Virus record (IMG/VR): IMGVR_UViG_3300032327_000495
Coordinates: 1-55,137 of that record
Length of the DNA: 55,137 bases
Direction: 5' to 3' (one strand)
DNA from: a virus
Lineage: Duplodnaviria > Caudoviricetes
A program made the translations under genes and the position numbers. Of the stretch, positions 1 to 14,165 are shown one piece after another. A model generated the notes under the pieces. The model did not search any database. It saw only the letters and a program-made list of their open reading frames with translations, and was not told where the DNA came from. Positions within the stretch are counted from its first letter, which is position 1; every line of letters begins with the position of its first letter.

Positions 1-61
1 CGTGTGGAATAAAATGCTGGTCGCTAATTAAAAATGCAATTCGTTTATTGTATGTTCTCAT
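1..61 (-). CDS. 5' end of a gene running off the window (MRTYNKRIAFLISDQHFIPH...), possibly a GT-B glycosyltransferase N-terminus
   Basis: ATG at 61 overlaps the TGA of the upstream ORF (ATGA); frame open to the edge; hydrophobic first strand RIAFLIS; only 20 codons visible. Confidence 0.45.
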   Translation of the reverse strand, partial: MRTYNKRIAFLISDQHFIPH

Positions 62-264
62 TTTGTTAACATCCATATAATATGGGCATTCTTATCGTGC
101 CATCGATATTCAAATATTGTATCGCCGGGTCCAGTAATTAATCTAGTCAAACGATACGCATACTTTAACCAAATACGTTTGCCTGATATATAGCAAGTCT
201 TAGGGAACCAAACAAATTTAAGTTCGACTCCTAATGACCATCTATAAAATGAATCGTGCGGCAT
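58..264 (-). CDS. small hypothetical protein
   Basis: TGATG coupling to the queE stop suggests start at 264 (MPHDSF...) rather than 276. Confidence 0.6.
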   Translation of the reverse strand: MPHDSFYRWSLGVELKFVWFPKTCYISGKRIWLKYAYRLTRLITGPGDTIFEYRWHDKNAHIIWMLTK

Positions 265-1112
265 CACGTACCCCATTCGTTTTTGAATAGAGGTACCTGA
301 AGTCTGTCACTATAGCGCCATCCTCGTTTCATTGCAGCCAGTGCAACATTCTTAGCATTCATGTTGTATACACTCTCGACCCCGCCACAGGGCATCAAGT
401 ATACAGGACCTCTGAATCCACCTGCACGATACTCCATAACTGCTTTTTCTGCTTCTTGTACATCTTCGTCCGTTGCCACAACAAATTTAAGATATACAAA
501 CCCCACGCTTTCATATTGACGAATAACAGTGGGTTTAATTGCTTCTTCCCATTTCTCACCGCTAATACTTAGTTTAGGACTAACGCTAAATGTTAATGCA
601 TTTTTTTCACGATTAATTTTCCATGACTGTAAAAATATTTTTAAGTCTTGACTAAGTTCTTGTGTACCATTAGTCTCAAATGTAATCTCTTTGAGAGATT
701 TCATTTTTTCATGTGAAAGTAATTCAGGATAACTTCTTTGCCATCCAAGTAACGGTTCACCACCTGTGATAACAAGGTGTTCATCCATCCAACGATTGTG
801 AGGAAGTATATCCATAATACTGTCAACAATACTATCGGTAGTGAGCATAGGACTAAGATGTTTAAACCTAGGGTCCCAAGATGCATAACTATCGCAACCT
901 GTGCTGACAAGTGGTAAGGATTTATAATCTGTATAATCTTCTGCTTTGATTGCAATAGTATCTCTTTCACTGCTTATTTCCCCTTTACTCATGCCAAATC
1001 CACCGCATGTAAAATTACATCCATATGTTCGTAGGAAAATACTTGGTACTCCGATATATCGGCCTTCTCCCTGAATGCTATAAAATAATTCTGAAATTTT
1101 TAGTTTGCTCAT
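264..1112 (-). CDS. queE: 7-carboxy-7-deazaguanine synthase (radical SAM)
   Basis: ELFYSIQGEG, FLRTYGCNFTC...GCDS, VITGGEP, ETNGT, SVSPK, RYSDRLQ; near queD and folE. Confidence 0.95.
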   Translation of the reverse strand: MSKLKISELFYSIQGEGRYIGVPSIFLRTYGCNFTCGGFGMSKGEISSERDTIAIKAEDYTDYKSLPLVSTGCDSYASWDPRFKHLSPMLTTDSIVDSIMDILPHNRWMDEHLVITGGEPLLGWQRSYPELLSHEKMKSLKEITFETNGTQELSQDLKIFLQSWKINREKNALTFSVSPKLSISGEKWEEAIKPTVIRQYESVGFVYLKFVVATDEDVQEAEKAVMEYRAGGFRGPVYLMPCGGVESVYNMNAKNVALAAMKRGWRYSDRLQVPLFKNEWGT

Positions 1113-1615
1113 TGTTCACCGTTGTATAGTTTTATTAAATTTGGTATTTCTTTGATGTGGTCTTCTGTGATATTAAACCATTCACCTCTAACTCGTAAAT
1201 CATCAAAATGTTTATGAATTTTACTTTCAATTTTGTCCGCACGTTCAAGTACCTCTGATTTCCAAATTAATTTCAAATCTAACCAATGGGAAGTTTGTAA
1301 TGCTGCTTTACGTGCAGCAACACATGAACCAGTAGTAACACCAATTTTATAAGGCATTCCTGGAATATCAGGTCCTATTACATAAATCGTACCTCTTACT
1401 GCTTTAGCTAAAGATAGCGAAGTTTGTTGATTTCTTGTCAATCCAATATCTTTAACCCTTTTACGGTGCGCGGCTCCATACGTAGCCGCGCATCTTCTGC
1501 ATTTGGGAATAGAAGTTTTATTTTTTTCTGTTGCTATTTTTAGATTACTAGGAAAAAAATTATTTTCAGTTGCATCTAATTTTTCATTACATGTTGTACA
1601 TTTATATTGTTTCAT
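1109..1615 (-). CDS. T5orf172/GIY-YIG-family putative endonuclease with N-terminal CxxC...CxxC Zn ribbon
   Basis: IYVI...YKIGVT...R..LQTS...IESKIH...RVRGEWF; TAATG coupling gives start 1615. Confidence 0.75.
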   Translation of the reverse strand: MKQYKCTTCNEKLDATENNFFPSNLKIATEKNKTSIPKCRRCAATYGAAHRKRVKDIGLTRNQQTSLSLAKAVRGTIYVIGPDIPGMPYKIGVTTGSCVAARKAALQTSHWLDLKLIWKSEVLERADKIESKIHKHFDDLRVRGEWFNITEDHIKEIPNLIKLYNGEQ

Positions 1616-1800
1616 TACCAATGCCTTATAACACCTGCTACAATGAAGCAGTTTGTTGTTATGTATGATAGCACAATTAATGTGCGTATAAAAGCAATAC
1701 GGTCAGCTTCCTGATCCGTATTACCGGCCTTTTCACCTAACGCCTTTGCCCAAAGGCTCCATAGATATTTAGCCTTCGTATGTAGCCGAATTCGCACCAT
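1615..1800 (-). CDS. small putative membrane protein
   Basis: WSLWAKALGEKAG...C-terminal hydrophobic helix ending RHW; start uncertain, overlaps the queD 3' end. Confidence 0.55.
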   Translation of the reverse strand: MVRIRLHTKAKYLWSLWAKALGEKAGNTDQEADRIAFIRTLIVLSYITTNCFIVAGVIRHW

Positions 1801-2284
1801 GTTCAAATACTTCAACACTTTTAACTCTTACTGTTGGATTAATTGGGTAACGCATTTTACCACTTGCAAGCAACTCTGCCATTTTATCATAGCACATTTT
1901 AGCAAACATTTCACAGCCTACTCCGGGTACAATACGCAAGTCGCAGAGTGCACCTCGCTCATGAGGGATCATGCTCAGATGATTTTTACTTTCAATATCT
2001 ACCATCTCGCTCATGTGTATGAAGAACTCTAGCATTGGGTCATCCTCAGCAATAACCAAAGTATGATCAAACATGTGATCCGCCCAAGCCTTGAATTCTT
2101 TGAGTCCACCAAAGTCCATACACCAGTTTTTTTCATCCAGTGTGTCGCATTCAAATACTAATTTGATACCAAGACTGTAACCATGTAATGTAGAACAGTG
2201 ACTGTGTTTAGCACGCCATTGTCTAAAACAGCAGGATAAGCCTCTGTCTGTACCGTAAGTTTTTGTTGAATAATATTTTGCCAT
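1769..2284 (-). CDS. queD: 6-carboxy-5,6,7,8-tetrahydropterin synthase (T-fold)
   Basis: HCSTLHGY, WCMDFGGLK, FDHT, GCEMFA, VEVFEH; AGGAG SD. Confidence 0.9.
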   Translation of the reverse strand: MAKYYSTKTYGTDRGLSCCFRQWRAKHSHCSTLHGYSLGIKLVFECDTLDEKNWCMDFGGLKEFKAWADHMFDHTLVIAEDDPMLEFFIHMSEMVDIESKNHLSMIPHERGALCDLRIVPGVGCEMFAKMCYDKMAELLASGKMRYPINPTVRVKSVEVFEHGANSATYEG

Positions 2285-2290
2285 TGATTT

Positions 2291-2366
2291 CTCCTATGTT
2301 AATTATAGCATAGGACGCAGAATTTATATACCGGGATGAGCCCATAAGGCCGGTTATCTTTATTTA
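2291..2366 (-). promoter_or_regulatory. structured queD leader: late TAAATA promoter, GC-rich hairpin, and an SD-sequestering hairpin with an extended -10 element in its loop
   Basis: Minus strand: TAAATA (2361-2366), ACCGG...CCGGT (2330-2354), TCCTATG-ctataattaa-CATAGGA (2292-2315) covering AGGAG; TGcTATAAT. Confidence 0.65.
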
Positions 2367-2950
2367 CCTTTTTGAGAATTCAAAAATATTTCTATTATTT
2401 TTTTAAGTTGCAAATAATTTGCCGGTTTGGTAGTCTTAATTAAATTGTCTGAAAATTTTAGGTCTTCATAATATAAATCTGCATCAAACTTTGCTGGAAA
2501 CGCTTTTAGAATCTTATTTCTATTACTCGTATCATTGATTGCTTGACGAATCCCCGCTGGATCAATGTCTATATTATTCATAAAACTAGAATTATTGAGA
2601 TCAAGATTATCATACATAAACTTAAACTCCCTTTTTCTAGCAATGTATAAACTAGCACATTGTGCTACTATATCTCTACGTTGAATTCTAATTAAAAAAC
2701 ATTTTTTAGAATCAATAATTGATTTTAAGTCTTGGTAATAATTATAATGATGTGCATGAAATTTTACAATATAATTATTATTTGTTTTTATATACGATAA
2801 GAATTCATCATATTGTTCATTGGTGTCCGGTTCATTGAACATTTTTTCCAAATTGAGTTGATTCTGAATGTCGTGCAATAAAATAGTAGACCCGGTTCTT
2901 TGACCAGATACAATAATAACAGGTAATATTATTGATGTCGGTAAAAACAT
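2360..2950 (-). CDS. Stf0-like sulfotransferase-family protein
   Basis: 5'-PSB-like SGQRTGST, FNEP, 3'-PB-like IRIQRRDIVAQCASLYIA, LYYEDL. Confidence 0.65.
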   Translation of the reverse strand: MFLPTSIILPVIIVSGQRTGSTILLHDIQNQLNLEKMFNEPDTNEQYDEFLSYIKTNNNYIVKFHAHHYNYYQDLKSIIDSKKCFLIRIQRRDIVAQCASLYIARKREFKFMYDNLDLNNSSFMNNIDIDPAGIRQAINDTSNRNKILKAFPAKFDADLYYEDLKFSDNLIKTTKPANYLQLKKIIEIFLNSQKGK

Positions 2951-2959
2951 GCTGTCATA

Positions 2960-3433
2960 TTATTTATTAATCTTGTTGATGATCTGGGCATCAGCTACCC
3001 GTTTGCGTAAACTACTACTACTGAAACTATGGTCACGACCATTGAATACTATTTCAATATTTCTATCATAACATTCATCTTTACCTGTAAAGTCTTTATC
3101 AGCGTACTCTACACCCAATATACGAACATTTACCGGAAGTATAAGTAAAAGGTCAATAAGGTCCTGTTCAGTTTGATATACTACTACTTCATCAACATAC
3201 CTACATGCTGCAAGTTGAATTTGTCTTTCTACAATGCTTTGAACAGGTTTATTTTTAGTGTCAGGTCTATCAATAGTAGGATCAGTTTGCAATCCTGCAA
3301 TTAAATAATCACAATGATTCTTTGCCTCACTTAACATAGCAACATGGCCTGCATGTAGCATATCAAATGACGAAAAAACAATACCGATCTTTTTACCTTC
3401 TTGTTTAAGTTTTTTAATATGATTAAAAATCAT
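2960..3433 (-). CDS. HxGH cytidylyltransferase (TagD/RfaE-like)
   Basis: SSFDMLHAGH, IAGLQTD, KPVQSIVER, RYVDEVVVY, RDHSFSSS. Confidence 0.85.
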   Translation of the reverse strand: MIFNHIKKLKQEGKKIGIVFSSFDMLHAGHVAMLSEAKNHCDYLIAGLQTDPTIDRPDTKNKPVQSIVERQIQLAACRYVDEVVVYQTEQDLIDLLLILPVNVRILGVEYADKDFTGKDECYDRNIEIVFNGRDHSFSSSSLRKRVADAQIINKINK

Positions 3434-3627
3434 GCATGACCTTTTTTAATCAAGTTATTTACCATGTTAAGGTCAAATTGTATATTGGCAACCTTCTCTT
3501 TAAGAGTTTGATATTCTACACTATCTACATCACCACCTTGTGTAACAATTTTTAAATATAACTCAGCAGCCTCTTCATGAGCCTTAATAAGATCATGTTC
3601 TAGTAAAACCCGTCTATCTTTTAACAT
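3430..3627 (-). CDS. hypothetical helical protein
   Basis: 65 aa, translationally coupled on both sides. Confidence 0.65.
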   Translation of the reverse strand: MLKDRRVLLEHDLIKAHEEAAELYLKIVTQGGDVDSVEYQTLKEKVANIQFDLNMVNNLIKKGHA

Positions 3628-4304
3628 TATTTTCCTTTATTTGCAATACTTAAAAATTCTGCTCTTGCAGATGGGTCAGTTTTGAATCCTCCGCCCAACC
3701 GACACGTAACCGTACTACTACTTGTATCCTCAATTCCCCTGCTTTTCACGCAAAAATGCTGGGCATCAATCATAACTGCAACATCTTCTGTATCAAGGAT
3801 AAACTGTAAGGTGTGAAATATTTGCTCTGTTAAGCGTTCCTGAATTTGAGGTCTCTTACTGAAATATTCTACAATACGGTTAATCTTACTAAGCCCTAAA
3901 ACTTTGTGTTTAGGGACATAAGCCACTGTGGCCAATCCATCGATGGTTACAAAATGATGTTCGCAGTTAGATTGAACATTAACATTACGCTCTACAACCA
4001 TTTCGTTGTATTGCATCTTGTTGTCAACTGTTGTACATTTGGGAAATGCTTCATAATCAAGACCATAAAATATTTCATTGACATACATCTTAGCAACACG
4101 CTTTGGTGTTTCAATCAGACTGTCATCAGACAAATCTAAACCCATAATACGCATAATGTGTGTAAAGTGAGCCTCGATATGGTCGATCTTTTCTTTACGA
4201 TCCATAGTATTAGGTAGTGTAGGAGTTTCAACTCCCATCTTAACCAAGTGTTCGTGAACCTTTTGACCCAACTCTGGATCTGTTTTTGTTTTATTATAAC
4301 TCAT
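3627..4304 (-). CDS. folE: GTP cyclohydrolase I
   Basis: ETPKRVAKMY, SNCEHH, GLSKINRIV, RPQIQERLT, HFCVKSRG. Confidence 0.97.
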   Translation of the reverse strand: MSYNKTKTDPELGQKVHEHLVKMGVETPTLPNTMDRKEKIDHIEAHFTHIMRIMGLDLSDDSLIETPKRVAKMYVNEIFYGLDYEAFPKCTTVDNKMQYNEMVVERNVNVQSNCEHHFVTIDGLATVAYVPKHKVLGLSKINRIVEYFSKRPQIQERLTEQIFHTLQFILDTEDVAVMIDAQHFCVKSRGIEDTSSSTVTCRLGGGFKTDPSARAEFLSIANKGK

Positions 4305-4339
4305 AGATAACCTTCCTTTGTGATGGTTTTTGTTTTGAA

Positions 4340-4378
4340 ATGTAAGCTACCGTTGTGTAGCCTACATGTTTATTTATC
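4340..4378 (-). promoter_or_regulatory. late promoter followed by an 11-bp hairpin in the folE leader
   Basis: GATAAATA (4371-4378), then ATGTAGGCTAC-acaacg-GTAGCTTACAT (4340-4367). Confidence 0.6.
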
Positions 4379-4382
4379 ACAA

Positions 4383-4580
4383 TTACTTGGCAGCAAGTTT
4401 TTCTGCGGCACGTGCGTTCTTAGTCTCAGTGATTTCATTACGGCGTGCTTTAACTGCTTTAGCCAATTCTGCTAGTGCTTTACGGGCACGTGTTCCTGCG
4501 GCTGAATTACCTGCTTCAAACTTTGCTGATTCGGCTTGATAAGCTGCCAATTGTGTTTCGATATCTTGATGTGCGCTCAT
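4383..4580 (-). CDS. histone H1-like (Hc1 family) DNA-binding protein
   Basis: KFEAGNSAAGTRARKALAEL signature; Ala/Lys-rich. Confidence 0.75.
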   Translation of the reverse strand: MSAHQDIETQLAAYQAESAKFEAGNSAAGTRARKALAELAKAVKARRNEITETKNARAAEKLAAK

Positions 4581-4774
4581 TGTTTTTCCTTTGTTAATTT
4601 GCGTTTTGTTTTTGGTACTTCTACCGAGTTGAGTGCTTCTCGCACTTCTTTTAATAATGCTTCGTCATCCCATTCTAGCATAGTTTTGCCATCAGGGAAA
4701 GTAGTTACGGTCAAATGATTGCCCTTAACTATTGTCGGTTCTTGTGATTCTGTTTTCTTTTTACGTGTTGCCAT
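4577..4774 (-). CDS. hypothetical protein
   Basis: Start reassigned to MATRKKK (4774), immediately after the GT stop. Confidence 0.65.
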   Translation of the reverse strand: MATRKKKTESQEPTIVKGNHLTVTTFPDGKTMLEWDDEALLKEVREALNSVEVPKTKRKLTKEKQ

Positions 4775-4775
4775 T

Positions 4776-5951
4776 TTAGTATTTGCTTTCTTTAGTATAT
4801 TTACGATAGTCAGTTGACATTCGCAAGTATTTGTCTCCACTACCCTCTAATACATCGATGATACGATCTATCGTACTATTATTGTAATCACTAATCTTGC
4901 CCATCTTTTCATGTGGCTTCTTTAATAATATCTCTAACTTATCTAGTGCATCGGCTATAGACCATGGCACATACAGTCGTTCATGGTCATTTGCGAAAGT
5001 TTCCGGAAAGGACCTGTAAGCAGGGTATAGAACATTGCACCCAAGACTATCTGCTTCACTTACTGTGTTAGAAACCCAATCTTGAAGGGCGCAATTAAAC
5101 ACAACACGACTATCATTAACGATATTATAGTAATCATTCTTTTCTAGATCCTCATAAACTTTTAATTGACCTATGTTAACCATGTGCATTGTTCGGTTCA
5201 TATAGTTTTCACTATTTGATTTTAATTTACCACCGCTACAGACACAGAATTCAACACCGCTATTAGGATAACGTTCATTCCATGCTTCAATAAGGTCCAT
5301 ATAAAAGTCAGGTTGTTTCTCTTGATCCCAACGAGCCGAAAATACAACCCTATGCTTACGATCAACAAATGGCTTAATATTGCCTACACGACCTTGTACT
5401 TCACTCTTGCCAAATGCCAAACCACTGATGTTATACAGTGGGGCCTTCCAGCCTGCAATCTTCATGTGCATGACCATTTCTTCGTTTGTAGCCAATACAC
5501 CATCAACAAAACTATCTACCATCTTTTCGTAATGACCCATAAATTCAGACATTCCCCAGACATGAACAAAGTCATCTGGATCAATACTTTGTGCAAGGCA
5601 ACGAACAAAAATCTTTGGTCGTAATGATGTATCAATTTGTTTAAGAATATACGGCAATGATTCAATGCCAGGTTGAAACATATCTTCAAAGTAAACGATA
5701 TCTTCGTTATTTAATTCTCCGGCTTTCATCATTTTGATTAGATTCATTAACTGACTCATACCAAAATATGTACGACCATGTGCATCTAATACTTGACCTG
5801 TTACAATTGCTTGATCATTGGTTAGTGTGTCACCGGGTACAACTATATAGTTAATTCCCCTACGTTTAAATACACACTCATTCCACTCTTGGAGTTGAAA
5901 AGTGTAACGGGCAACATATTTTTCTAAACCCATGTAGTAGAGTTTTCTCAT
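4776..5951 (-). CDS. GT-B fold (GT4-like) glycosyltransferase
   Basis: VVFSARWDQEKQP; FNCALQDWVSNTVSEADSLGCNVLYPAYRSFPE donor-binding region. Confidence 0.8.
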   Translation of the reverse strand: MRKLYYMGLEKYVARYTFQLQEWNECVFKRRGINYIVVPGDTLTNDQAIVTGQVLDAHGRTYFGMSQLMNLIKMMKAGELNNEDIVYFEDMFQPGIESLPYILKQIDTSLRPKIFVRCLAQSIDPDDFVHVWGMSEFMGHYEKMVDSFVDGVLATNEEMVMHMKIAGWKAPLYNISGLAFGKSEVQGRVGNIKPFVDRKHRVVFSARWDQEKQPDFYMDLIEAWNERYPNSGVEFCVCSGGKLKSNSENYMNRTMHMVNIGQLKVYEDLEKNDYYNIVNDSRVVFNCALQDWVSNTVSEADSLGCNVLYPAYRSFPETFANDHERLYVPWSIADALDKLEILLKKPHEKMGKISDYNNSTIDRIIDVLEGSGDKYLRMSTDYRKYTKESKY

Positions 5952-6727
5952 TTACTATCCTTTATTTCTTTATGCTTATAATACAACATTTCAATTGTCA
6001 TGTCACTCTTATTGGACTTTTTTCTATTAGATATACCATCTATCAACCTTAAATTTACCCGAGATCCTATAATTTCAGGTGGAACTTTGTTGACCCACCC
6101 ATCCGTAATAGATACTATATGATCTAAATGGGTATCTCTGTTCCTACTCTCTCCGATAAAGTATTTTTTAAAATTCTTATCAGTTTCTTTCCAAACAGCA
6201 ATTTTATATTTTTCATGCTCGGTGATATCATCGGGATGCCTGCACTGCCCTTTCTTAATTTTAGTGGTCAATGCTCGTTGCGTACCGCATTCACTACAAC
6301 CTGAATCAGATAGTAAGGTGTTGGGTTTAATCATAAAATATCCATGTTTTGGACAGCCAACTTCTACTTTAGTGTGAGAATTCTTATAGTCTACTTTACT
6401 ATAGTCATAATTAGGAAAAATGTTACGAACCTCATTTAAGAACTCATCTGTGGTTTTACTAAAACTATTACCACATTTTGGACAGCCCCCTCTCCCCTTC
6501 ATATCATTTGGCCATTTAAAAAAGTACCCGTGCACCTTACATCCTATTTCTATTTTAGTTGAGGAATTTACATAATTAACTCGGTCTAGTAAGTATCTGT
6601 CTCCGTGCGATAGTTTTATTTCAATAATAATTTGTTCTGTTGTTTTTCTGAAGGGGGAGGGTCCCTTTTTAATTCCACGAATTTTGTTTATCCTAGCCTC
6701 TATGTGCTCTTTGGTTTGTTTACTCAT
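5948..6727 (-). mobile_element. free-standing HNH homing endonuclease with two Zn-binding repeats
   Basis: Two Y...K(I/V)E(I/V)GCxxHGYF...GCxxCG repeats; HLDHIVS...NLRLIDGISNRKK; GATAAATA (6748-6755) and an AGGGG SD support start 6727. Confidence 0.75.
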
Positions 6728-6801
6728 AATTAACCCCTTTGATAAAGTATTTATCATCGGGTATTGTTTTTTATAAGGTTCTAAGCACATAAAGGTGTCA
6801 T

Positions 6802-7560
6802 TTACGCATCTTTTCTCTCAATATCATCTTCATCACATGCTTCGCCATATTGAATTTCTACAACACGACATGGTACATCATATGGATTACTTAGTCTATG
6901 CCAATCACCCTGTGGAATTTGTACTTCGCTATATTTTGTCAATTCTATAGTAGGCATACTATAGCCACTGGCTAATTTCATATCCAGTATACAATTACCT
7001 TCGGTTACATGCCAAAATTCATGTCGTTTAAAATGTCTTTGCATACTTAAACTTTTGCCGGGCTCTACTGTTAATTCTTTTACTTTACATCCATTTACAT
7101 CATGCAGTATACGATAGTAACCCCATTCTCGCAATGTTTTTGGTTGTTTCCATTCACGCAAAATCCAACTGCTTGAATTCATTTTATTATCACCGCCAAC
7201 ACCGAAAACAAATTCAACATCATCAAAAACCATTTCAGGGATGTTGTCTTTGGTTCTGTCCCCACCATTGGCAAATATAATTTTTGATTTTGGGTATAAA
7301 CTCTTTACTTGTTTGATAGCATCGATTGCAGTATCATCACTATCATCAAATTCTATTACCTTGTGTATCTGATACAGGCTTTCAATGATTGCTTTTCGTT
7401 CAGAGATAGGCATAAAAGGTTGACCTTTTTTACGGGTCAACCATGCGTCACTGTTTACTCCTACTATAAGTAAGAAGCCTAATGCCTTAGCAGCCTTGAA
7501 GTATTCAATGTGACCACTGTGCAGAGGATCAAATCCCCCGGTGACTAGTACTACTTTCAT
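6802..7560 (-). CDS. HxGH nucleotidyltransferase fused to a mannose-6-phosphate-isomerase-like cupin
   Basis: VTGGFDPLHSGH, FANGGDR; REWGYY, SLSMQRHFKRHEFWHV, WHRLSN, VEIQYG...EDDIER; ATGA coupling gives start 7560. Confidence 0.85.
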   Translation of the reverse strand: MKVVLVTGGFDPLHSGHIEYFKAAKALGFLLIVGVNSDAWLTRKKGQPFMPISERKAIIESLYQIHKVIEFDDSDDTAIDAIKQVKSLYPKSKIIFANGGDRTKDNIPEMVFDDVEFVFGVGGDNKMNSSSWILREWKQPKTLREWGYYRILHDVNGCKVKELTVEPGKSLSMQRHFKRHEFWHVTEGNCILDMKLASGYSMPTIELTKYSEVQIPQGDWHRLSNPYDVPCRVVEIQYGEACDEDDIERKDA

Positions 7561-7763
7561 CGGCGAATCGCATCTTCCCATGAATCTTTTGCCCACTTGC
7601 CACCAAGTTGTTTAGTATGCTGGCGATATGCAAAACTACGCATATCATAAAGTGTTGCTTCATCAAACTTATAACCGAAATCTACGCAGAATTCCTTGTA
7701 TTTTTCAAGGTCTTCAAAAATTTGATAGACACGGGGATTAGATTGAAATTGTTGTTTTGCCAT
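7557..7763 (-). CDS. hypothetical protein
   Basis: 68 aa with AAGGA SD, inside the operon. Confidence 0.7.
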   Translation of the reverse strand: MAKQQFQSNPRVYQIFEDLEKYKEFCVDFGYKFDEATLYDMRSFAYRQHTKQLGGKWAKDSWEDAIRR

Positions 7764-7775
7764 TTTAATAATCCT

Positions 7776-8231
7776 TTAAATAGCGAGTTGTTGATAAGGT
7801 TGAGTTTTGTTATAATGAATCGTGGCACCATTTTCATTGTCTTCGGATACAGAGATAGTGATATTACGATTTGAATATCGAGTTGCAATAACTTCATAGA
7901 GGTCATCACTAATCATTTCACAACTTTTGTAATCCAACGCAAGAATGCCTTGAGAATATTGATTCTCTAACCATCGCTTGAATTGGATAAACTCGATATC
8001 ACGGTCGTTGTGAAATACTTCAATCGTCACTTCAAAGTGAAAAATGTGACGATGTGGAGTTGCTAGAAAGCTAACATCATACTCATCACCTGTTGCCAAG
8101 TTAGGGTCTGTTGCTGCCGCTGGGTATTTATGAATACCTTCTTTTTGAAAACGCACAAAAATAGTGCGAATTGCCTTGTCCTTAATGCGTTGACGTTGTT
8201 CAGTCATTGCTTGTTCTTTTTGTTCGTTCAT
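7776..8231 (-). CDS. QueD-like T-fold protein, DpdL-like (candidate CDG decarboxylase)
   Basis: LATPHRHIF fits LxxxHRHxF; DRDIEF, SCEM, VSEDNENGA; second T-fold gene besides queD. Confidence 0.7.
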   Translation of the reverse strand: MNEQKEQAMTEQRQRIKDKAIRTIFVRFQKEGIHKYPAAATDPNLATGDEYDVSFLATPHRHIFHFEVTIEVFHNDRDIEFIQFKRWLENQYSQGILALDYKSCEMISDDLYEVIATRYSNRNITISVSEDNENGATIHYNKTQPYQQLAI

Positions 8232-8440
8232 CGGTCATCATCCAAATTAACTGTTTCATGGTCATGATCCCATTGTGCTCGGTTCATGTTCCTCAGTTCA
8301 GTAAAATACTTCTCTTTGGATTCTCTTAATTCAGACAATTTTTTAGTATCAGTGGACCCACTTTTTTCTAATTGAAAAATTTGATTATCTAACAATCTAA
8401 CTGATTCTTCTAGTGTTTTAATACGACTTCTATATGGCAT
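8228..8440 (-). CDS. hypothetical coiled-coil protein
   Basis: 70 aa between the TGT-like and DpdL-like genes; GGAG SD. Confidence 0.7.
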   Translation of the reverse strand: MPYRSRIKTLEESVRLLDNQIFQLEKSGSTDTKKLSELRESKEKYFTELRNMNRAQWDHDHETVNLDDDR

Positions 8441-8441
8441 A

Positions 8442-9992
8442 TCATTCTCCTAATATTTTTGAAATTTCATCATCACTATCTTCAATGATTTCATCAACTT
8501 CGGGTTCATTGTTTACTTCAAACAATTGGTCAAACATTGTCATAGCATTCATTGTTTTTTTACCACTAAAGCCCTGACTACCAGATTTCATCTGCATCCA
8601 GAAGCTACTATGTGATTCTATCATGTCTAGACTCTTTTGTCTATCTTTTTGTGCAAATATCTTGTCTACAATTTCACCGAAATGTTCATCATCAAATTGA
8701 TTCATGACCATTTTTGGCATAATGCCCTGTTCATATTTACGATTTGCTTCTTGGACTGCGGTCATATGAGTATACACATTATGACTTTGCAATAATGTAT
8801 AACTTAATGTGTCCCAGCTTGTTTTGGTTTCTTTACCGTGCTGACCAATAAATCCTTGACCCCTGAAACAAAGGTCCTTCATGGTCATAAGGTCGGTTAC
8901 TGGACTATCAGTGAAGACTTTGTGAATACCATCTTGCAACACACCATCACTAAACTTGCGATTGTCATTGGCATAACTTTTCTTTTCGGCAGTTTTTTCC
9001 ATACTGTATGCCCACTTTTTATTGTGTTCAATACTGTTGTTGAAATATGCTAGACCTTTAGCCGCACTAAAGAACGGACTCGCACAGTCAAATGTAATCT
9101 GAAGTTTAGGGTTGTGATACTTACGTATAGCTTTTTGAATATCGGTAAAGAGTACCGCATACTCTAAGATAGATACACCCAAACAGTGAATCAAATCATG
9201 CTTGCCTTCAACTAACAATCCATCATGGATAATGTTAACTAATCTACGCAACATCAAGTGTACGTCAATTTTGTTTTGACCACCAAATGCCCAACCATTA
9301 AAGTGATTATCGGGATAAATGTTCGGGTCACAGTACTTCTTCATTTCTTCATACCAGTCATCACTTTGTGTATGATTACGACCTTGCAATACATTTAAGA
9401 ACTTGCAGTTACCATTACGATTCTTAATGAAGTATTCATTGTTAATATGAGTGGCACTAATAGCTTCTTCAATCGTACTGATACCATGAGCACTTTTACC
9501 TGTCTTTGGATCCTTAATGTGAAAGGTAGATAAGGATTGCGAAGGGATATCTAAACACATACCATAATCCATGTACGTGTCCATCCAGTTCAATACCGCT
9601 TTACGCTTAATCATAGCACGAGGGCAGTTAGGATCTTTCCAATCAGCAGACCATTGACATTTTAGAATTTGAAATCCACCACTGTCACCCAACATGAATG
9701 TACCTGCTTCACGCTTACGAATGATAGATTCATTTGGGTCATCTTTAGTTGTATCTAAGTTAGCATGACCTGCACTGTATAAGCCCCACTTATAATAGTA
9801 AAGACCTTCTTTGCTGTTTAAGAAGTTTAGTTTCTCTACATCTCCATTAAATGCAGGCGGCACACGTTGAGGTTCAAAATAAACTTCTCCCTCACGTTGC
9901 TTACCTAAGCCGGCGATATAAAAACTACTGACCGCCGGCAAGAACAACGCCCAGTCGTTATTATGACTTGCTGATAGATTTACTTGTTCCAT
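8442..9992 (-). CDS. dpdA: TGT-fold base-exchange enzyme, probably DNA 7-deazaguanine transglycosylase (DpdA-like)
   Basis: TGT motifs in order: LGDSGGFQ, CLDIP, NVLQG, GWAFGG, IHCLGV, ITFDCAS, SHN; no CxCxxC Zn site; between the clamp and deazaguanine genes. Confidence 0.8.
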   Translation of the reverse strand: MEQVNLSASHNNDWALFLPAVSSFYIAGLGKQREGEVYFEPQRVPPAFNGDVEKLNFLNSKEGLYYYKWGLYSAGHANLDTTKDDPNESIIRKREAGTFMLGDSGGFQILKCQWSADWKDPNCPRAMIKRKAVLNWMDTYMDYGMCLDIPSQSLSTFHIKDPKTGKSAHGISTIEEAISATHINNEYFIKNRNGNCKFLNVLQGRNHTQSDDWYEEMKKYCDPNIYPDNHFNGWAFGGQNKIDVHLMLRRLVNIIHDGLLVEGKHDLIHCLGVSILEYAVLFTDIQKAIRKYHNPKLQITFDCASPFFSAAKGLAYFNNSIEHNKKWAYSMEKTAEKKSYANDNRKFSDGVLQDGIHKVFTDSPVTDLMTMKDLCFRGQGFIGQHGKETKTSWDTLSYTLLQSHNVYTHMTAVQEANRKYEQGIMPKMVMNQFDDEHFGEIVDKIFAQKDRQKSLDMIESHSSFWMQMKSGSQGFSGKKTMNAMTMFDQLFEVNNEPEVDEIIEDSDDEISKILGE

Positions 9993-10723
9993 TATTTTGC
10001 GTTAGCTGGAAGTAAGTAACGATATGTTGCTAGACCACTATCAACTGTGATTTCAGTTGCGCCTGCATCACTAATGCGAACAGTTTTGTCACCGGCTAAA
10101 TCCATGATGGCCAAAAATACTTTAACAGGCCAGTTCCATGTTTTACTCAATGTTCCATTGACAGACGCTTGAAATACAAAGTTACCACTGTGAGTTGACG
10201 GGTCACCAAAGTTAATCTTTAAGTCACCGTTAACTGTAGTCATAGTAAAATGTTCTTGTTCACTATTAGCACTTGCTTGTTTCTTAAGACGCTGAATGCC
10301 TGCAATCGTTGGCTCAAACTCAACGTTCCAAGTAGTGCCTTTGAATGTAACATTTTTAACTTTTTCCTCGACAATTGATTTACTCATTAGTCGATAGTCG
10401 TTAACAAAATCACCGTTCTTTGTTTCAAAGTGAATTGTTGATGGAATATCAACGCCGTCACGATTAGTAGTTGTTACACTAATCTTAGCATCTGTATCAT
10501 AATCATCAAAGCCTAAAATAGTTTTTAGTTTACCTAAATTAGGCATACCAAATACTCCGATAAAGTCTGCTACTGGGCTATTCAATGTACCGGACACAAT
10601 AACAGATTTGTCTTCTGCGATTGCATTGATTTGTGTTTCTGTATCGGTACCACTAACTTTAATTAAGTCTACATTACCGAGACCATGAGTGTGTTGAATT
10701 AAATCTTGTAAGTTATCTTTCAT
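9992..10723 (-). CDS. DNA sliding clamp (gp45-like)
   Basis: 243 aa alternating beta/alpha pattern, C-terminal YRYLLPA; near polB; clamp loader also in the window. Confidence 0.7.
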   Translation of the reverse strand: MKDNLQDLIQHTHGLGNVDLIKVSGTDTETQINAIAEDKSVIVSGTLNSPVADFIGVFGMPNLGKLKTILGFDDYDTDAKISVTTTNRDGVDIPSTIHFETKNGDFVNDYRLMSKSIVEEKVKNVTFKGTTWNVEFEPTIAGIQRLKKQASANSEQEHFTMTTVNGDLKINFGDPSTHSGNFVFQASVNGTLSKTWNWPVKVFLAIMDLAGDKTVRISDAGATEITVDSGLATYRYLLPANAK

Positions 10724-10741
10724 GTTTTTCCTTTGTATACC

Positions 10742-10793
10742 TATTTAGGCAGTTTATGTTATCTATTATAGTGGGGTTTATTGCAAATTGCAA
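10742..10793 (-). promoter_or_regulatory. tandem sigma70-like and late promoters for the clamp-dpdA operon
   Basis: TTGCAA-17-TATAAT (10793-10765) and TAAATA (10742-10747). Confidence 0.65.
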
Positions 10794-10822
10794 TAGCAAT
10801 TTACCCTTTTATAAATATTAGT

Positions 10823-11461
10823 ATGTTTAAAAAAATTTTATGCATCGGGTGTAGTCTTACTTACGGTGAAGAATTACAATCACCATCACAAACATCATGG
10901 CCATCATTATTGGGTCAGATAAATGATTGGGATGTAACCAACGCCGGAAAATATAGAAGTAGTAATGACAGAATCATCAGAGTTGCATTTGAAGAATTAG
11001 ATAATAAATACGATCTAGTTATAATAGCGTGGTCACAAATTTCTAGATTTGAGATTATGCAAAATTCTAACTATAGAGATGTAAGTATAAATTGTCCTAC
11101 TATACGAAATTTCAAATGGGCTGAAGAATATTACAAATACTACTATGATCTTAATGATAGTTACCGTAAATGTCTACAGCAAATAATTTTACTTCAAAGT
11201 TATATGGAGAAGATAAATCAACCATATATTTTTTGCAACGCTTTTTCAGATTTGTCTAATCTTCCTAAAATTGATAACATTATGTCACTGGCATCAAAAG
11301 TAGACACCAAATACTATTTGGGCTGGATGTCCGATTCTATTATGGATTGGACTAAGTTTACTCCGCACGGTCCCGGACATCATCCGCTTGAGGAGGGACA
11401 TGTCATCATAGCCGATAAAATTAATAATTTTATACATAAGGTCTATCCTAATCAAATGTAA
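10823..11461 (+). CDS. SGNH/GDSL hydrolase-like protein
   Basis: IGCSLTYG block I, NAG...SN, GHHPLEEGH; TATAAATA at 10810-10817, 5 nt before ATG 10823. Confidence 0.75.
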   Translation: MFKKILCIGCSLTYGEELQSPSQTSWPSLLGQINDWDVTNAGKYRSSNDRIIRVAFEELDNKYDLVIIAWSQISRFEIMQNSNYRDVSINCPTIRNFKWAEEYYKYYYDLNDSYRKCLQQIILLQSYMEKINQPYIFCNAFSDLSNLPKIDNIMSLASKVDTKYYLGWMSDSIMDWTKFTPHGPGHHPLEEGHVIIADKINNFIHKVYPNQM

Positions 11462-14165
11462 ATAAATCATCAAACGTACTGTTAGTATCTGTATTAGAAC
11501 GAATGTCCCATTCTAGCACGCCTAATAAGTTATCAATCTTTTCATCTACCAATGTCTTTTCCATTTCAGCATCATCAAATGGTAAATCAGTAAACCATTT
11601 AGGTAATCTTAATTCATCCACTGGATAGGCAATGCTTGTAAATCCTAGTGCATTTGATTTGAGTTTACAAACAATAACTTTCATACCATCGATGATTTGT
11701 TGACTATATTGGTCACTGTTAACTCTACGCAAGTAGTTGTAATTAAGTGCCGCACGAACGTGCCCGGGCATATTAGCACGACCTGTCGCACTCTTAGATT
11801 CTAAGTCACCATAGTATGTAAGTTTGTTTACACCTTTGGGAGAACCTTTAGTCCAACTATCTTGTGCAGTTAGTATACGCTTGAAATCTTTGACAGCACC
11901 AATCACATCATCACGTCCTTTACCTTGTTGAAGAACCATACCCAATACATTCATTAAGAATTCTTGTACATACTTTGGAGTATCAGCACGTTTCAAGTCA
12001 AGGCCCATAGCTTTGATATCACCTAGCTTGCCGTCACTATCTTTGCGCTTACCTTCTTTATCAAAGATGTTGATAGCATAACGCTTCTTGACGATAAAGA
12101 TAGCACGATCACCGATCAGTTCACGACCAGCCTTAATAATCTCACCATTCTTTCGAGGAGCATGAAATGCTTTCTCCATGAATGCTGGGAAACTATCGTT
12201 TGCTTGGTCAGCAATACCATCGTACAAGCCGATACAAGTTTCTTTATTCCATTCTAATGCACCGGATTCAATCTGAGGCTTAAGTGTTGGATATGCAGTA
12301 AAGTAACATGAGTCAGTATCACCATACACAATTGCATTGCCTTCATGTGAATAGACACCTTCAACTGTTTCATTGATAGTACTCATCATGTGTTTAACAA
12401 TCTGACGACCACTTAATGTAACACTTTGACCAATACGCTTATCGTAGAAACGACAATGTTCGTTTAGTAGTGCGCCATATGCAGAGTTAAGCAAAATCTT
12501 GCGAACCAGTTGTCGCTTATCCCAATACTCTCTATCAGCATCAGTCGTTGCTTCTTTTAGTTTCTTCTGCATACTTTTACGATCACTGTACCATCGTGTA
12601 AGTAGACCGGGTACAACACCTTCTTTTTCATAAGTAAAGATTGTACCATTTGCACTTAGCATCCAGGGGCGATGACTATCAAAGACCAATTTCCATATCT
12701 CTGCCGCGCTCATTTCTTCACTACGACCATCTTCATAGTCTACTGTAAGTATAGTACCACGCTCTTGATTCATGATAGATGTGTACTCTAACGCACCGAA
12801 CAAGTTTTCCCATAGAATACTACCTGTTACTGCATCGTCACCCTCTTTAGCACGTTTCTTTTCACTTGCTAAACGATGACCTTTATCGTCCATATATTGG
12901 TCAGTTAATGTTTGTCTAACTTGTGCGACAATCGTTTCTCCACCCATGTTGAGGGCACGAATAACCGAGGGATAGAGTGAGTTAATGTCAACTGCTCCGA
13001 CATATTCGTGCATTCCCTTTTTGGGCGTAGCAACAAAGGCACCTGCTGCCTGCTGGACTTCTTCTGCATTTTCAACCTTTCGTTTTTTATCCGGAACTAC
13101 TAGCCCACGTTCGTGAGCCTCATTAAAAATTGCCATTTCAATCATAGCCACTGAACCCATAACTGTTGGGAGCAGTACTGTGTTCTCATGTGCAAGTTGA
13201 TTTGCTAATTCTAAAAACTTAAGTTTGTTGTGAATCTTTACCAACAACATTGTATCTTGTCTGTTGTATTCAATAAACTTTTTAAAGTCTTTGTTATACA
13301 ACTGGTCAAGTGTACCTTCATATTGTGTTTTGTTCTCACCTACTTCCATCTCACCGATACTGTCAAGTTTATAACTGTGGCGTGATTCATAGTTATACTT
13401 TTTGTACAACTGTAAATAGTCCAAATGAATACGACCTACTAAGTCATAAGTTGTTTCGCTTTTACCAAATCGTTCGTACTCTCTGGCCTTAGGCAGTTGA
13501 CCCATCAAACAAAACTTGCGTGTGTCATCTTTACTCATTACTCTAGTAACACGATTGACCATATATGGAATATCATAGCCCTCTGAGTTCCAACCAGTCA
13601 ATACATCAGCATCTTCAATGAGTTGAAAGAAAACATCAAACATTTCCTTCTCTGTTTTGAAAAGCATTGTGTTTTCAAATTCATTTACAATTTCGTTTGC
13701 TGTTTCACTTGTCATATGCTTGGGCGCAATAACAAGAGTAATACATTGATCGAGCCAATCTAAATAACAACTAATCGCAGTTACAGGATTGAATGGGTCA
13801 CTTGTGGGACTGAATCCTTTAACAGGATCAAAGTCTACTTCAATGTCAAAGAAGCAAGTGTGAAGTTTAGGGGCATCAACGCCCAGATAGTTTTCACTTA
13901 AACAACGAAAGACTACCGGCACATCACTTTCAAATAATTTCTTACCTGAGTGAATACGCTTTTCTTTTTCAAACTCTGTGCGTTTGCGTGTACTGAAACG
14001 ACTGACCGGATCACCATAGATACTACGCTGTTTGCCTTTGGGATCGGGATAGTATAACACATAATTAGTAGGATATTCTTTGTACTGGCGTTTGCCATTA
14101 CTATCTCTTTCAACTACATATATTCTGTCCTCATCCCTGCTATGGATGGCATCCACATAACTCAT
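11448..14165 (-). CDS. family B DNA polymerase (gp43-like) with 3'-5' exonuclease
   Basis: FFDIE, GWNSEGYD, YNRQD; DINSLYPS, KILLNSAYG, YGDTDS, KKRY; no intein. Confidence 0.97.
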   Translation of the reverse strand: MSYVDAIHSRDEDRIYVVERDSNGKRQYKEYPTNYVLYYPDPKGKQRSIYGDPVSRFSTRKRTEFEKEKRIHSGKKLFESDVPVVFRCLSENYLGVDAPKLHTCFFDIEVDFDPVKGFSPTSDPFNPVTAISCYLDWLDQCITLVIAPKHMTSETANEIVNEFENTMLFKTEKEMFDVFFQLIEDADVLTGWNSEGYDIPYMVNRVTRVMSKDDTRKFCLMGQLPKAREYERFGKSETTYDLVGRIHLDYLQLYKKYNYESRHSYKLDSIGEMEVGENKTQYEGTLDQLYNKDFKKFIEYNRQDTMLLVKIHNKLKFLELANQLAHENTVLLPTVMGSVAMIEMAIFNEAHERGLVVPDKKRKVENAEEVQQAAGAFVATPKKGMHEYVGAVDINSLYPSVIRALNMGGETIVAQVRQTLTDQYMDDKGHRLASEKKRAKEGDDAVTGSILWENLFGALEYTSIMNQERGTILTVDYEDGRSEEMSAAEIWKLVFDSHRPWMLSANGTIFTYEKEGVVPGLLTRWYSDRKSMQKKLKEATTDADREYWDKRQLVRKILLNSAYGALLNEHCRFYDKRIGQSVTLSGRQIVKHMMSTINETVEGVYSHEGNAIVYGDTDSCYFTAYPTLKPQIESGALEWNKETCIGLYDGIADQANDSFPAFMEKAFHAPRKNGEIIKAGRELIGDRAIFIVKKRYAINIFDKEGKRKDSDGKLGDIKAMGLDLKRADTPKYVQEFLMNVLGMVLQQGKGRDDVIGAVKDFKRILTAQDSWTKGSPKGVNKLTYYGDLESKSATGRANMPGHVRAALNYNYLRRVNSDQYSQQIIDGMKVIVCKLKSNALGFTSIAYPVDELRLPKWFTDLPFDDAEMEKTLVDEKIDNLLGVLEWDIRSNTDTNSTFDDLFTFD

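Follow-up and report, generated by a model that had tools for sequence, protein, structure and literature searches.

7-Deazaguanine modifications of DNA are a major means by which phages counter host defences, and eight such derivatives are known, none of which, to our knowledge, carries a sugar. The stretch of DNA considered here (the window), which comes from a freshwater phage, is the whole linear IMG/VR virus record IMGVR_UViG_3300032327_000495 (55,137 bases; CheckV completeness ~16 %), at the start of which lies a 7-deazaguanine DNA-modification cluster of the DpdL type, composed of FolE, QueD, QueE, DpdL and a DpdA-like DNA transglycosylase. A GT4-like glycosyltransferase (GT) of 391 residues, termed GT391, is embedded in this cluster, and comparison across related phages lends strong support to the view that it belongs to the deazaguanine pathway. 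What matters at the locus is a conserved DpdL–GT391 module accompanied by an epimerase, while the genes for nucleotidyl and sulfo transfer are variable.

Organization of the locus

The window is a fragment of the genome of a large (jumbo) myovirus, an assignment based on the family-B DNA polymerase, the ATP-dependent protease and the tail tube and tail sheath genes that it contains. Its G+C content is 33–43 % throughout and nearly all of its genes lie on the minus strand. The modification cluster adjoins the DNA polymerase gene, among replication genes, and the record ends inside the cluster, which runs on past base 1. Related contigs bearing the same cluster reach 367 kb; a megablast search of bases 1–11000 against phage records gave no match.

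An earlier annotation made from the letters alone (the sequence-only reading) had listed on one strand a tRNA-guanine transglycosylase (TGT)-fold enzyme, a protein with the motif LxxxHRHxF, FolE, QueD, QueE, a GT4-like glycosyltransferase, an HxGH–cupin fusion and a TagD-like gene, all of which are present, on the minus strand (Table 1). A further glycosyltransferase had been suspected at the window edge, and bases 61 to 1 do encode the first 20 residues of a 445–447-aa glycosyltransferase that is complete in relatives. The proposed extent of the cluster, bases 1–10723, holds for bases 1–9992; the remainder (9992–10723) encodes a homologue of the virion protein gp314 of phage PA5oct, and two homing-endonuclease-like genes interrupt the cluster.

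Relatives of the locus were obtained by scanning IMG/VR with GT391, which yielded 403 relatives; the best 80 loci, selected by GT391 similarity alone, were kept, and all gene counts over these 80 loci were made by tblastn with the window proteins. The 46 related loci that span DpdA to QueE are referred to below as complete clusters. Among cultured phages, tblastn with DpdL matched 28 phage records in the isolate collection, representing 13 distinct phages.

Table 1. Genes and features of the window: cluster core and glycosyltransferases first, then the remaining open reading frames (ORFs)
Feature	Position	Strand	Basis
DpdA-like DNA transglycosylase, 516 aa, divergent long (~515-aa) TGT-fold family	8442-9992	minus	AlphaFold2 (AF2) + Foldseek
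DpdL, QueD paralogue, proposed 7-carboxy-7-deazaguanine decarboxylase, 151 aa	7776-8231	minus	motif LATPHRHIF
GT391, GT4-like retaining-type GT-B glycosyltransferase, 391 aa	4776-5951	minus	AF2 + Foldseek
FolE, GTP cyclohydrolase I	3627-4304	minus	Pfam GTP_cyclohydroI 1.9e-61
QueD, 6-carboxytetrahydropterin synthase type	1769-2284	minus	Pfam PTPS 1.3e-16; phrog_2389 3.3e-35
QueE-like radical-SAM (S-adenosylmethionine) 7-carboxy-7-deazaguanine synthase	264-1112	minus	phrog_2076, E 3.5e-54
Second glycosyltransferase (GT447), first 20 codons, cut by the window edge	1-61	minus	match to ORFs of relatives
HxGH cytidylyltransferase, CDP-alcohol type (NT157)	2960-3433	minus	CTP_transf_like 4.1e-11
HxGH nucleotidyltransferase (NTase) fused to a mannose-6-P-isomerase-type cupin	6802-7596	minus	CTP_transf_like 1.1e-12; MannoseP_isomer 1.8e-21; Cupin_2 5.2e-6
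Sulfotransferase-like protein, 196 aa	2360-2950	minus	Atlas leads only
Hc1 histone-H1-like small DNA-binding protein, 65 aa	4383-4580	minus	Pfam Hc1 8.6e-14
T5orf172/MUG113 (GIY-YIG-type) homing-endonuclease-like insert	1109-1621	minus	Pfam MUG113 1.6e-12, T5orf172 3.1e-11
DUF723/HNH-type homing-endonuclease-like insert, HNH-like C-terminus	5948-6790	minus	Pfam DUF723 8.5e-8
Conserved 72-aa ORF after QueE	58-276	minus	tblastn
Conserved 68-aa ORF between DpdL and GT391	7557-7763	minus	tblastn
Small 70-aa ORF between DpdA and DpdL	8228-8440	minus	tblastn, 27/80 loci; no family
Virion-protein homologue, outside the cluster	9992-10723		PA5oct gp314, 32 % identity over 245 aa, E 4e-44
DUF6071 ORF, between the virion-protein gene and the polymerase	10781-11461	plus	
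Family-B DNA polymerase, beyond the modification cluster	11448-14165		
AAA+ ATP-dependent protease-like protein, 757 aa	27774-30047	minus	phrog_4871, E 4.7e-233

The 7-deazaguanine core

Family, motif and fold evidence agree on the nature of the core genes, as had been anticipated when FolE, QueD, QueE, DpdL and DpdA were read as a deazaguanine DNA-modification system. In the related loci the order is constant, namely family-B polymerase, virion protein, DpdA, DpdL, small ORF, the NTase–cupin fusion where it occurs, GT391 and, with other genes interspersed, FolE, QueD and QueE, and the identity of the gene order in the 46 loci spanning DpdA to QueE indicates that this arrangement is not due to chance. 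FolE was found in 63, QueD in 50 and QueE in 54 of the 80 related loci; the NCBIfam QueE models match the window QueE below their cut-offs. The motif CxxxHGY of the window QueD was considered as a possible oddity and set aside, since the same motif is found in the aligned QueD proteins of phages phiST and ACP17.

The motif LxxxHRHxF has been reported, in the study that described DpdL, as the signature of this protein, taking the place of the CxxxHGH of QueD, and the DpdL–QueD relationship is given there on the basis of HHpred (PMC10516641). The window DpdL fits this signature, which is kept in the DpdL proteins of all 46 relatives with complete clusters, and it can be aligned with QueD in one MAFFT alignment, while the Pfam PTPS model gives no match. 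By tblastn it is 55 % identical to its ACP17 homologue (E 3e-39) and 34 % identical to CGPG_00067 of phiST (E 1e-4). DpdL was detected in 77 of the 80 related loci; in each of the four loci without a DpdL match of at least 40 % coverage, less than 1.2 kb of sequence is available on the upstream side of GT391. Its assignment as a decarboxylase of 7-carboxy-7-deazaguanine (CDG) in the sequence-only reading is thus borne out as to the meaning of the motif, while decarboxylation itself has the standing of a published proposal; co-expression of dpdL with dpdA in Escherichia coli gave no 7-deazaguanine in DNA (dDG) (PMC10516641). In Vibrio phage Bakedbeans (L097:7254-8405), the DpdL match falls in the C-terminal third of the annotated 383-aa protein gp176, which has no Pfam match and could be a fusion or an annotation that needs to be checked.

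The DpdA-like protein, here called DpdA516, is likely to be the base-inserting enzyme of the cluster, as judged from its modelled fold. The AF2 model (predicted local distance difference test score, pLDDT, 81.6; alignment of 17 family members) has TGTs as all 12 of its best Foldseek rows in the PDB (E 4.5e-7 to 5e-5; TM-score by target ~0.5), and the matches that follow are unrelated TIM barrels (xylanases) at E > 3e-3. The sequence has no match in Pfam (TGT included), PHROG, NCBIfam or the PDB, profiles of the DpdA516 family and of classical-DpdA-like neighbours found no match in the PDB, and a PADLOC scan of 10 DpdA-type proteins returned nothing relevant. The motifs GDSGGFQ and FDCASP are invariant in all 17 family members, and in the ACP17/BUDD-type proteins DSGGLQ and YDSTTH stand at the aligned positions; the two motifs may contain the counterparts of the catalytic aspartates of TGTs. 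The relationship between DpdA516 and the ACP17/BUDD-type DpdA proteins exists at the profile level only (hhalign probability 91.8 %, E 7.6e-7). Searches by tblastn and family profile located DpdA516 relatives only in PA5oct-like phages, in Phosso and, as one partial match, in a Vibrio phage, and they matched neither the DpdA3 of phiST nor classical DpdA; among the 13 DpdL isolates, the family profile matches only PA5oct and Phosso. DpdA516 is present in 73 of the 80 related loci and occurs alongside FolE, QueD and QueE in the window and in 46 related loci.

GT391 and its pairing with DpdL

GT391 is a genuine and probably active GT-B enzyme, to judge from its predicted structure and residue conservation. 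The AF2 model (pLDDT 94.8) shows the two-Rossmann-domain GT-B fold and has 385 Foldseek matches in the PDB at E <= 0.001, the best of which (E ~1e-12) are MshA, glycogen synthase, PimA, BshA, LmbT and SenB; the family profile matches WlaC in the PDB (3.4e-4). Single-sequence searches of the PDB with the 516-, 151-, 196- and 391-aa proteins of the cluster gave chance-level matches only. The Pfam Glycos_transf_1-type C-terminal domain models score GT391 at 17–21 bits, below their cut-offs of 25–26; precomputed assignments to PF00534 or PF13524 exist for some close members of the family. Across 62 diverse members (28–58 % identical to GT391), no substitution occurs at R207 or K212, and conservation is at least 90 % at D291 and E299, which are eight residues apart; these residues presumably represent the donor-binding residues and the (E/D)x7E motif of GT4 enzymes. 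The family is large, with matches at E <= 0.001 to at least 7,989 proteins and to 761 clusters at 50 % identity. When GT391 is compared with BFVD, models of phage "DNA alpha-GT" proteins come up as matches 12 and 41 (TM-score ~0.5); a complex prediction for GT391 with DpdL gave no verdict (score 0.01).

Wherever gene context was visible, the GT391 family sits with DpdL. The sequence-only reading had proposed, as a check, the co-occurrence of the glycosyltransferase with DpdL and dpdA in relatives, and GT391 does prove to be linked with both (DpdL 77/80, DpdA 73/80 loci). In all 46 complete clusters DpdL and GT391 are both present, side by side. A distant GT391 subfamily (represented by P0183), which is ~30 % identical, has DpdL adjacent and FolE nearby in 12 of 12 viral loci, most of them also with QueD and QueE. 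The DpdA proteins of these distant loci were found by clustering and tblastn; in 10 of the 12 there is a neighbour with homology to classical DpdA as found in phages Iggy, CAjan and 9g, and neither Pfam TGT nor the ACP17-type DpdA profile matched in the 12 records.

The same association extends to cultured phages. A GT391-family gene occurs in seven of the 13 DpdL phages (PA5oct, Phosso, BUCT-ZZ01, ACP17, BUDD, X1 and BCSR5), the records of which name hosts from six different genera, and in six of these seven it adjoins DpdL or a DpdA-type gene. In BCSR5 the homologue neighbours the DpdA-type gene and is separated from DpdL by ~3 kb. In Phosso (L002, L095), the DpdA homologue is ~170 kb away and GT391 still stands beside DpdL, FolE and QueE; a gene annotated as "glycosylase" is found directly upstream of DpdL in this phage. 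In total, the GT391–DpdL pair occurs with three different DpdA types, and since the type of DpdA differs between carrier lineages, the pair appears to outlast changes of the transglycosylase.

Sugar-related genes

The second glycosyltransferase, GT447, is represented in the window by its start (MRTYNKRI...), which matches the N-terminus of the 445–447-aa ORFs of two relatives (L011:17204-18547 and L012:15529-16866). The full-length relatives match Glycos_transf_1 weakly and share 39 % identity, over 432 aa, with a glycosyltransferase of 447 aa in the cluster of BUCT-ZZ01; by tblastn the GT447 family is present in 27 IMG/VR loci and in BUCT-ZZ01. In the latter phage this orthologue (L003:6010-7353) lies between FolE and DpdA, and an annotated xanthine-guanine phosphoribosyltransferase (L003:4093-4554) lies between QueE and QueD.

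A GalE-like short-chain dehydrogenase/reductase (SDR) was detected by tblastn in 62 of the 80 related loci, directly after GT391 in one group of relatives and after QueE and the second glycosyltransferase in the group of the window. Both forms have UDP-glucose 4-epimerases as their best PDB matches (1.8e-61 and 6.5e-36). Less frequent companions in the 46 complete clusters are HIT proteins (6), DegT aminotransferases (5), SAM methyltransferases (5), B12-radical-SAM proteins (4), radical-SAM proteins (4) and 2-oxoglutarate (2OG) oxygenases (3). Five relatives (L029, L050, L069, L070 and L077), the DpdA of which is ~50 % identical, carry another tailoring set between GT391 and QueE, consisting of the GalE-like SDR, a DegT aminotransferase, a HIT protein, a B12-binding radical-SAM protein, an unknown 280-aa protein and a SAM methyltransferase, which suggests a different decoration, possibly an amino sugar.

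Among nucleotide-activating genes, the best PDB matches of NT157 are ethanolamine-phosphate cytidylyltransferase (1.8e-20) and TagD, the glycerol-3-phosphate cytidylyltransferase (1.5e-11). NT157, an addition typical of the group to which the window belongs, was found in 41 of the 80 related loci, and its family in 27 of the 46 complete clusters. Both HxGH NTases of the window score well above the CTP_transf_like cut-off of 21 bits (43.7 and 48.8 bits) and have the motifs HAGH and HSGH. Names given by PHROG and NCBIfam had implied an ADP-heptose pathway, an idea that was rejected because the SDR is GalE-like (HldD only 4.3e-10) and the best matches of NT157 are CDP-alcohol cytidylyltransferases.

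Variable cargo and inserted genes

The sequence-only reading had regarded the co-located transferases collectively as decorating the base. This holds well for GT391, given its strong linkage, and not for the sulfotransferase-like gene and the NTase–cupin fusion, which occur in 2 and 14 of the 80 related loci, respectively, and are absent from five large relatives, so that they appear to be lineage-specific cargo rather than defining parts. Where the fusion occurs, it is always located between DpdL and GT391. An Stf0-like sulfotransferase had been named in the same reading; the ORF is present and has a structural lead, an Atlas match to an Stf0 cluster at a TM-score of 0.71, while no Pfam, PHROG, NCBIfam or PDB sequence match was obtained. 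In the nearest viral Atlas clusters PF09037 is found on 12–15 % of members. A P-loop kinase (28.5-bit APS_kinase match) occurs in 21 fetched loci and in 16 of the 46 complete clusters, often in the group of the window, and is absent from the window itself; a coherent module of 3'-phosphoadenosine-5'-phosphosulfate (PAPS) supply and sulfotransferase was rejected, as the kinase joins the sulfotransferase-like gene only in L043.

The T5orf172/MUG113 insert was found in none of the 80 related loci and the DUF723/HNH insert in five; inserts of the GIY-YIG and NUMOD kinds are also present in related clusters, where they are different ones and occupy different sites. The small Hc1 protein, which resembles chlamydial histone H1, is kept inside the cluster in 45 of the 80 loci. 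Conservation is also evident for two short ORFs, one of 68 aa (68/80 loci; 39/46 complete clusters) and one of 72 aa, which has no Pfam family and is found in 34 of the 80 loci, always just past QueE. Beyond the cluster, the DUF6071 ORF is the sole sizeable plus-strand gene in the stretch and has no tblastn match in the 80 related loci, and the 757-aa AAA+ protease-like gene sits among virion genes.

QueC and QueF

The cluster had been described as lacking QueC. No true match to QueC (PF06508) or QueF was found in the window, and a weak QueF match (PF14489) was rejected because it falls inside FolE. The absence of QueC cannot be claimed for the genome, however, and says little in itself, since the record is ~16 % complete and ends inside the cluster. 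In five large relatives, one of them 100 % complete at 367 kb, QueC-like matches reached 14–21 bits, or 22–28 bits with the ORFs scanned alone; they cover only the C-terminal zinc-binding part and belong to PP-loop proteins that stand beside radical-SAM genes, far from the cluster. These PP-loop proteins have 206–222 aa (L088:1015-1683, L093:1060-1695 and L092:1072-1692). In 25 other DpdL-bearing records, 22 had no QueC match, two had weak ones and one had a partial match above the cut-off.

A true QueF ORF (L017:17907-18326; 62.6 bits) is present ~1.5 kb beyond QueE in a single relative, which has both DpdL and GT391; it is the only true QueF match among all fetched loci and hints that some lineages may make a preQ1-type base. 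The pattern of DpdL without canonical QueC thus appears to hold broadly, although it is not provable for this fragment.

A proposed pathway and its alternatives

The gene content would be consistent with the following pathway. FolE, QueD and QueE would convert GTP to CDG, the established chemistry of these families, and DpdL would act on CDG, for which decarboxylation to 7-deazaguanine (DG) is the published proposal. The long TGT-fold protein, acting as DpdA, would exchange guanine in DNA for the new base, as suggested by its fold, motifs and context. GT391 would attach a hexose to the deazaguanine, a role suggested by the fact that it remains paired with DpdL in deeply diverged lineages and alongside three DpdA types; the donor would probably be UDP-galactose or UDP-glucose, between which the GalE-like epimerase would convert. 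The sugar might be attached to the free base before insertion or to the DNA afterwards, and charge does not discriminate between these acceptors, because GT391 (pI 5.6) and the putative DpdA (pI 5.9) are both acidic. In the sub-lineage of the window, it can be speculated that the second glycosyltransferase, the cytidylyltransferase, the NTase–cupin fusion and the sulfotransferase-like protein extend or decorate the sugar; as these genes differ between relatives, the decoration would be lineage-variable. The phage would presumably gain protection from restriction and other DNA-targeting defences. A glycosylated 7-deazaguanine in phage DNA is the best reading of the locus, and we consider it about evenly balanced between being right and being wrong.

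A broader proposal, which we hold a little less likely than its contrary, is that DpdL and GT391 together mark a widespread, unnoticed branch of the pathway ending in glycosylated 7-deazaguanine, which would be the first case, for any genome, of a purine analogue that bears a sugar, with a glycan that varies between lineages. The glycan variants would include a GalE-supplied hexose, an amino sugar made with DegT and the methyltransferase, and a second sugar added by GT447, to which the lineage of the window possibly adds a CDP-alcohol-derived phospho-substituent or a sulfate. If true, the existence of such a branch would explain both the failure of dpdL and dpdA to yield a product in E. coli and the identity of the "modified G" of PA5oct.

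Several observations weigh against a glycosylated base. The DpdL phages for which the DNA has been measured, phiST, phi19:2 and phi13:1, carry plain dDG (PMC10516641), and they possess no GT391 and have the short DpdA3 instead, so that in these phages DpdL needs no glycosyltransferase to yield dDG. The GT391 profile had no match in six of the 13 DpdL isolates (phiST, MA9V-3, D479, Ahp1, RHph_I1_18 and Bakedbeans), four of which carry a short DpdA3 next to DpdL. 7-Deazaguanine has no obvious hydroxyl group for O-glycosylation, which leaves the attachment site a matter of conjecture, and glycosyl transfer by GT391 is something that we infer from linkage, predicted fold and conserved residues. 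The GalE-like SDR and the complete GT447 are known from relatives and not from the window, beyond the edge of which the epimerase of this phage, if it has one, would lie. Given the weak QueC-like proteins and the one QueF, the base may not be derived from DG in every lineage. The cluster region also takes up homing-endonuclease genes and cargo with no relation to the pathway, for example Bax1-I, and homologues of the HxGH NTases occur in T4-like cyanophage records, where the matched features have only sugar-nucleotide annotations (dpdA was not looked for there); a hotspot for insertion may thus be the reason why the variable genes lie next to the cluster core.

An alternative is that the DNA contains plain dDG (or its 7-carboxy counterpart, dCDG), as in phiST, and that the glycosyltransferases, epimerase, NTases and sulfotransferase-like protein act elsewhere. 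Their targets might be proteins of the virion or the host, the envelope of the host cell or some small molecule, and the location of the genes would result from a permissive insertion site or from early co-expression. The production of dDG by phiST-type DpdL phages that lack GT391 favours this view, as do the cyanophage NTase homologues, the low counts of the sulfotransferase-like and NTase–cupin genes (2/80 and 14/80 loci) and the tolerance of unrelated cargo, which includes the two homing-endonuclease-like genes of the window as well as Bax1-I, radical-SAM and 2OG-oxygenase genes in relatives. A hotspot nevertheless fails to explain why GT391 stands with DpdL in 46 of 46 clusters, 12 of 12 distant loci and seven cultured phages, why the pairing persists while the DpdA type changes, and why GT391 of Phosso stays with DpdL, FolE and QueE when DpdA is ~170 kb away. 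On balance, plain dDG in the DNA of this phage seems unlikely, yet it deserves serious consideration.

The tightness of the pairing would also be accounted for if GT391 were required for the pathway and left no sugar in DNA, either because it forms a transient glycosylated or activated intermediate for DpdL or DpdA, or because it is a non-catalytic partner. GT391 is paired more tightly with DpdL than with any DpdA type, expression of just dpdL and dpdA in E. coli yielded no dDG, and the best structural matches include the small-molecule GT-B enzymes MshA, BshA, LmbT and SenB, all of which fit such a role. The conserved donor-site residues, on the other hand, weigh against a purely structural function, and the GalE-like epimerase, DegT aminotransferase and methyltransferase that travel along argue for catalysis; a second glycosyltransferase in the cluster fits the building of a glycan better than a transient intermediate, and phiST makes dDG without GT391. 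We regard this explanation as improbable. That the cluster modifies no DNA at all, and instead yields a free, huimycin-like 7-deazapurine glycoside or a tRNA modification during infection, could be argued from the huimycin-type clusters that join FolE, QueD and QueE with a glycosyltransferase acting on a free base and from the sharing of the TGT fold with tRNA enzymes, but it is very hard to reconcile with the DpdA-type transglycosylase in 73 of 80 close loci, 10 of 12 distant loci and the isolates, the documented action of phage DpdA relatives on DNA, the position of the cluster beside the DNA polymerase among replication genes and the restriction-resistant DNA of PA5oct, which has the same module.

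Should GT391 indeed glycosylate the base, a DNA chemistry not yet described would exist in many environmental phages and in several that are in culture, among them PA5oct, a jumbo phage described in the literature as a therapy candidate. Such a chemistry would bear on the evasion of restriction and CRISPR systems and on recognition by modification-dependent nucleases, as well as on sequencing artefacts and on enzyme tools for DNA labelling. Glycosylation of the deazaguanine is directly testable, as seven carrier phages are already in culture.

Comparison with known systems

The closest characterized counterpart is the dDG system of the phiST type (DpdA3–DpdL–FolE–QueD–QueE in phiST, phi19:2 and phi13:1), with which the window shares FolE, QueD, QueE, a DpdL with the LxxxHRHxF motif and a transglycosylase of the TGT superfamily, and which is the only type for which dDG is reported to have been measured (PMC10516641). 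No QueC match was found in 22 of the 25 DpdL-bearing records, and the remaining three have weak or partial matches. The phiST type differs in having a 259-aa DpdA3 and no GT391-family gene, whereas the window encodes a 516-aa TGT-fold protein of another family and possesses, in addition, GT391, the partial second glycosyltransferase and sugar-nucleotide genes.

Uncharacterized clusters akin to that of the window are found in Pseudomonas phage PA5oct, Acidovorax phage ACP17, Xanthomonas phages BUDD and X1, Burkholderia phage BCSR5, Sinorhizobium phage Phosso and Synechococcus phage BUCT-ZZ01, which have in common with the window the pair of DpdL and a GT391-family gene among FolE and QueE and, except in Phosso, close to a DpdA-type gene. 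PA5oct and Phosso share the DpdA family of the window, and BUCT-ZZ01 shares the second glycosyltransferase; ACP17, BUDD, X1, BCSR5 and BUCT-ZZ01 differ in having a DpdA type of ~420–450 aa, which is related to that of the window at the profile level. In these isolates the cluster genes are mostly annotated as hypothetical, and no published base identity for the seven was found in the available texts. The DNA of PA5oct resists cleavage at G-containing restriction sites, and a modified G has been deduced from this resistance together with QueE and PTPS homologues, the available text giving no base identity (PMC12191111, END-nuclease preprint). The study of DpdL made use of dpdL and dpdA of ACP17, and its main text is silent on the adjacent glycosyltransferase, although the supplements may list the neighbours (PMC10516641). 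Full-text literature searches, which did not cover the supplementary phage lists of that study, retrieved no paper that links a glycosyltransferase to phage deazaguanine DNA modification.

A functional parallel is provided by the glycosylated 5-hydroxymethylpyrimidines, exemplified by the alpha- and beta-glucosyltransferases of T4, in which sugar is transferred by a GT-B enzyme of the phage to a base that has already been modified, and additional glycosyltransferases and sugar-nucleotide genes supply lineage-variable glycans. A preprint reportedly describes glycan hypermodification of 5-hydroxymethylcytosine in phage DNA (bioRxiv 10.1101/2023.12.21.572611). The base of the window would differ in being a purine analogue without a hydroxymethyl handle, and GT391 is no closer to the DNA alpha-GTs (TM-score ~0.5) than to many other GT-B enzymes. 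We know of no glycosylated purine in DNA.

Outside phages, the clusters for huimycin and dapiramicin combine FolE, QueD and QueE homologues with a glycosyltransferase whose acceptor is a 7-deazapurine, at its 2-amino group; the huimycin enzyme, HuiG, places N-acetylglucosamine there (PMC7439116; bioRxiv 10.64898/2026.04.15.718813). These clusters belong to the secondary metabolism of actinomycetes, employ QueC (via preQ0) and an O-methyltransferase, have neither DpdA nor DpdL and release a free product, and HuiG is likened to GT391 by description only. The precedent of HuiG nevertheless indicates that the glycosylation of a 7-deazapurine, as envisaged here for GT391, is chemically feasible.

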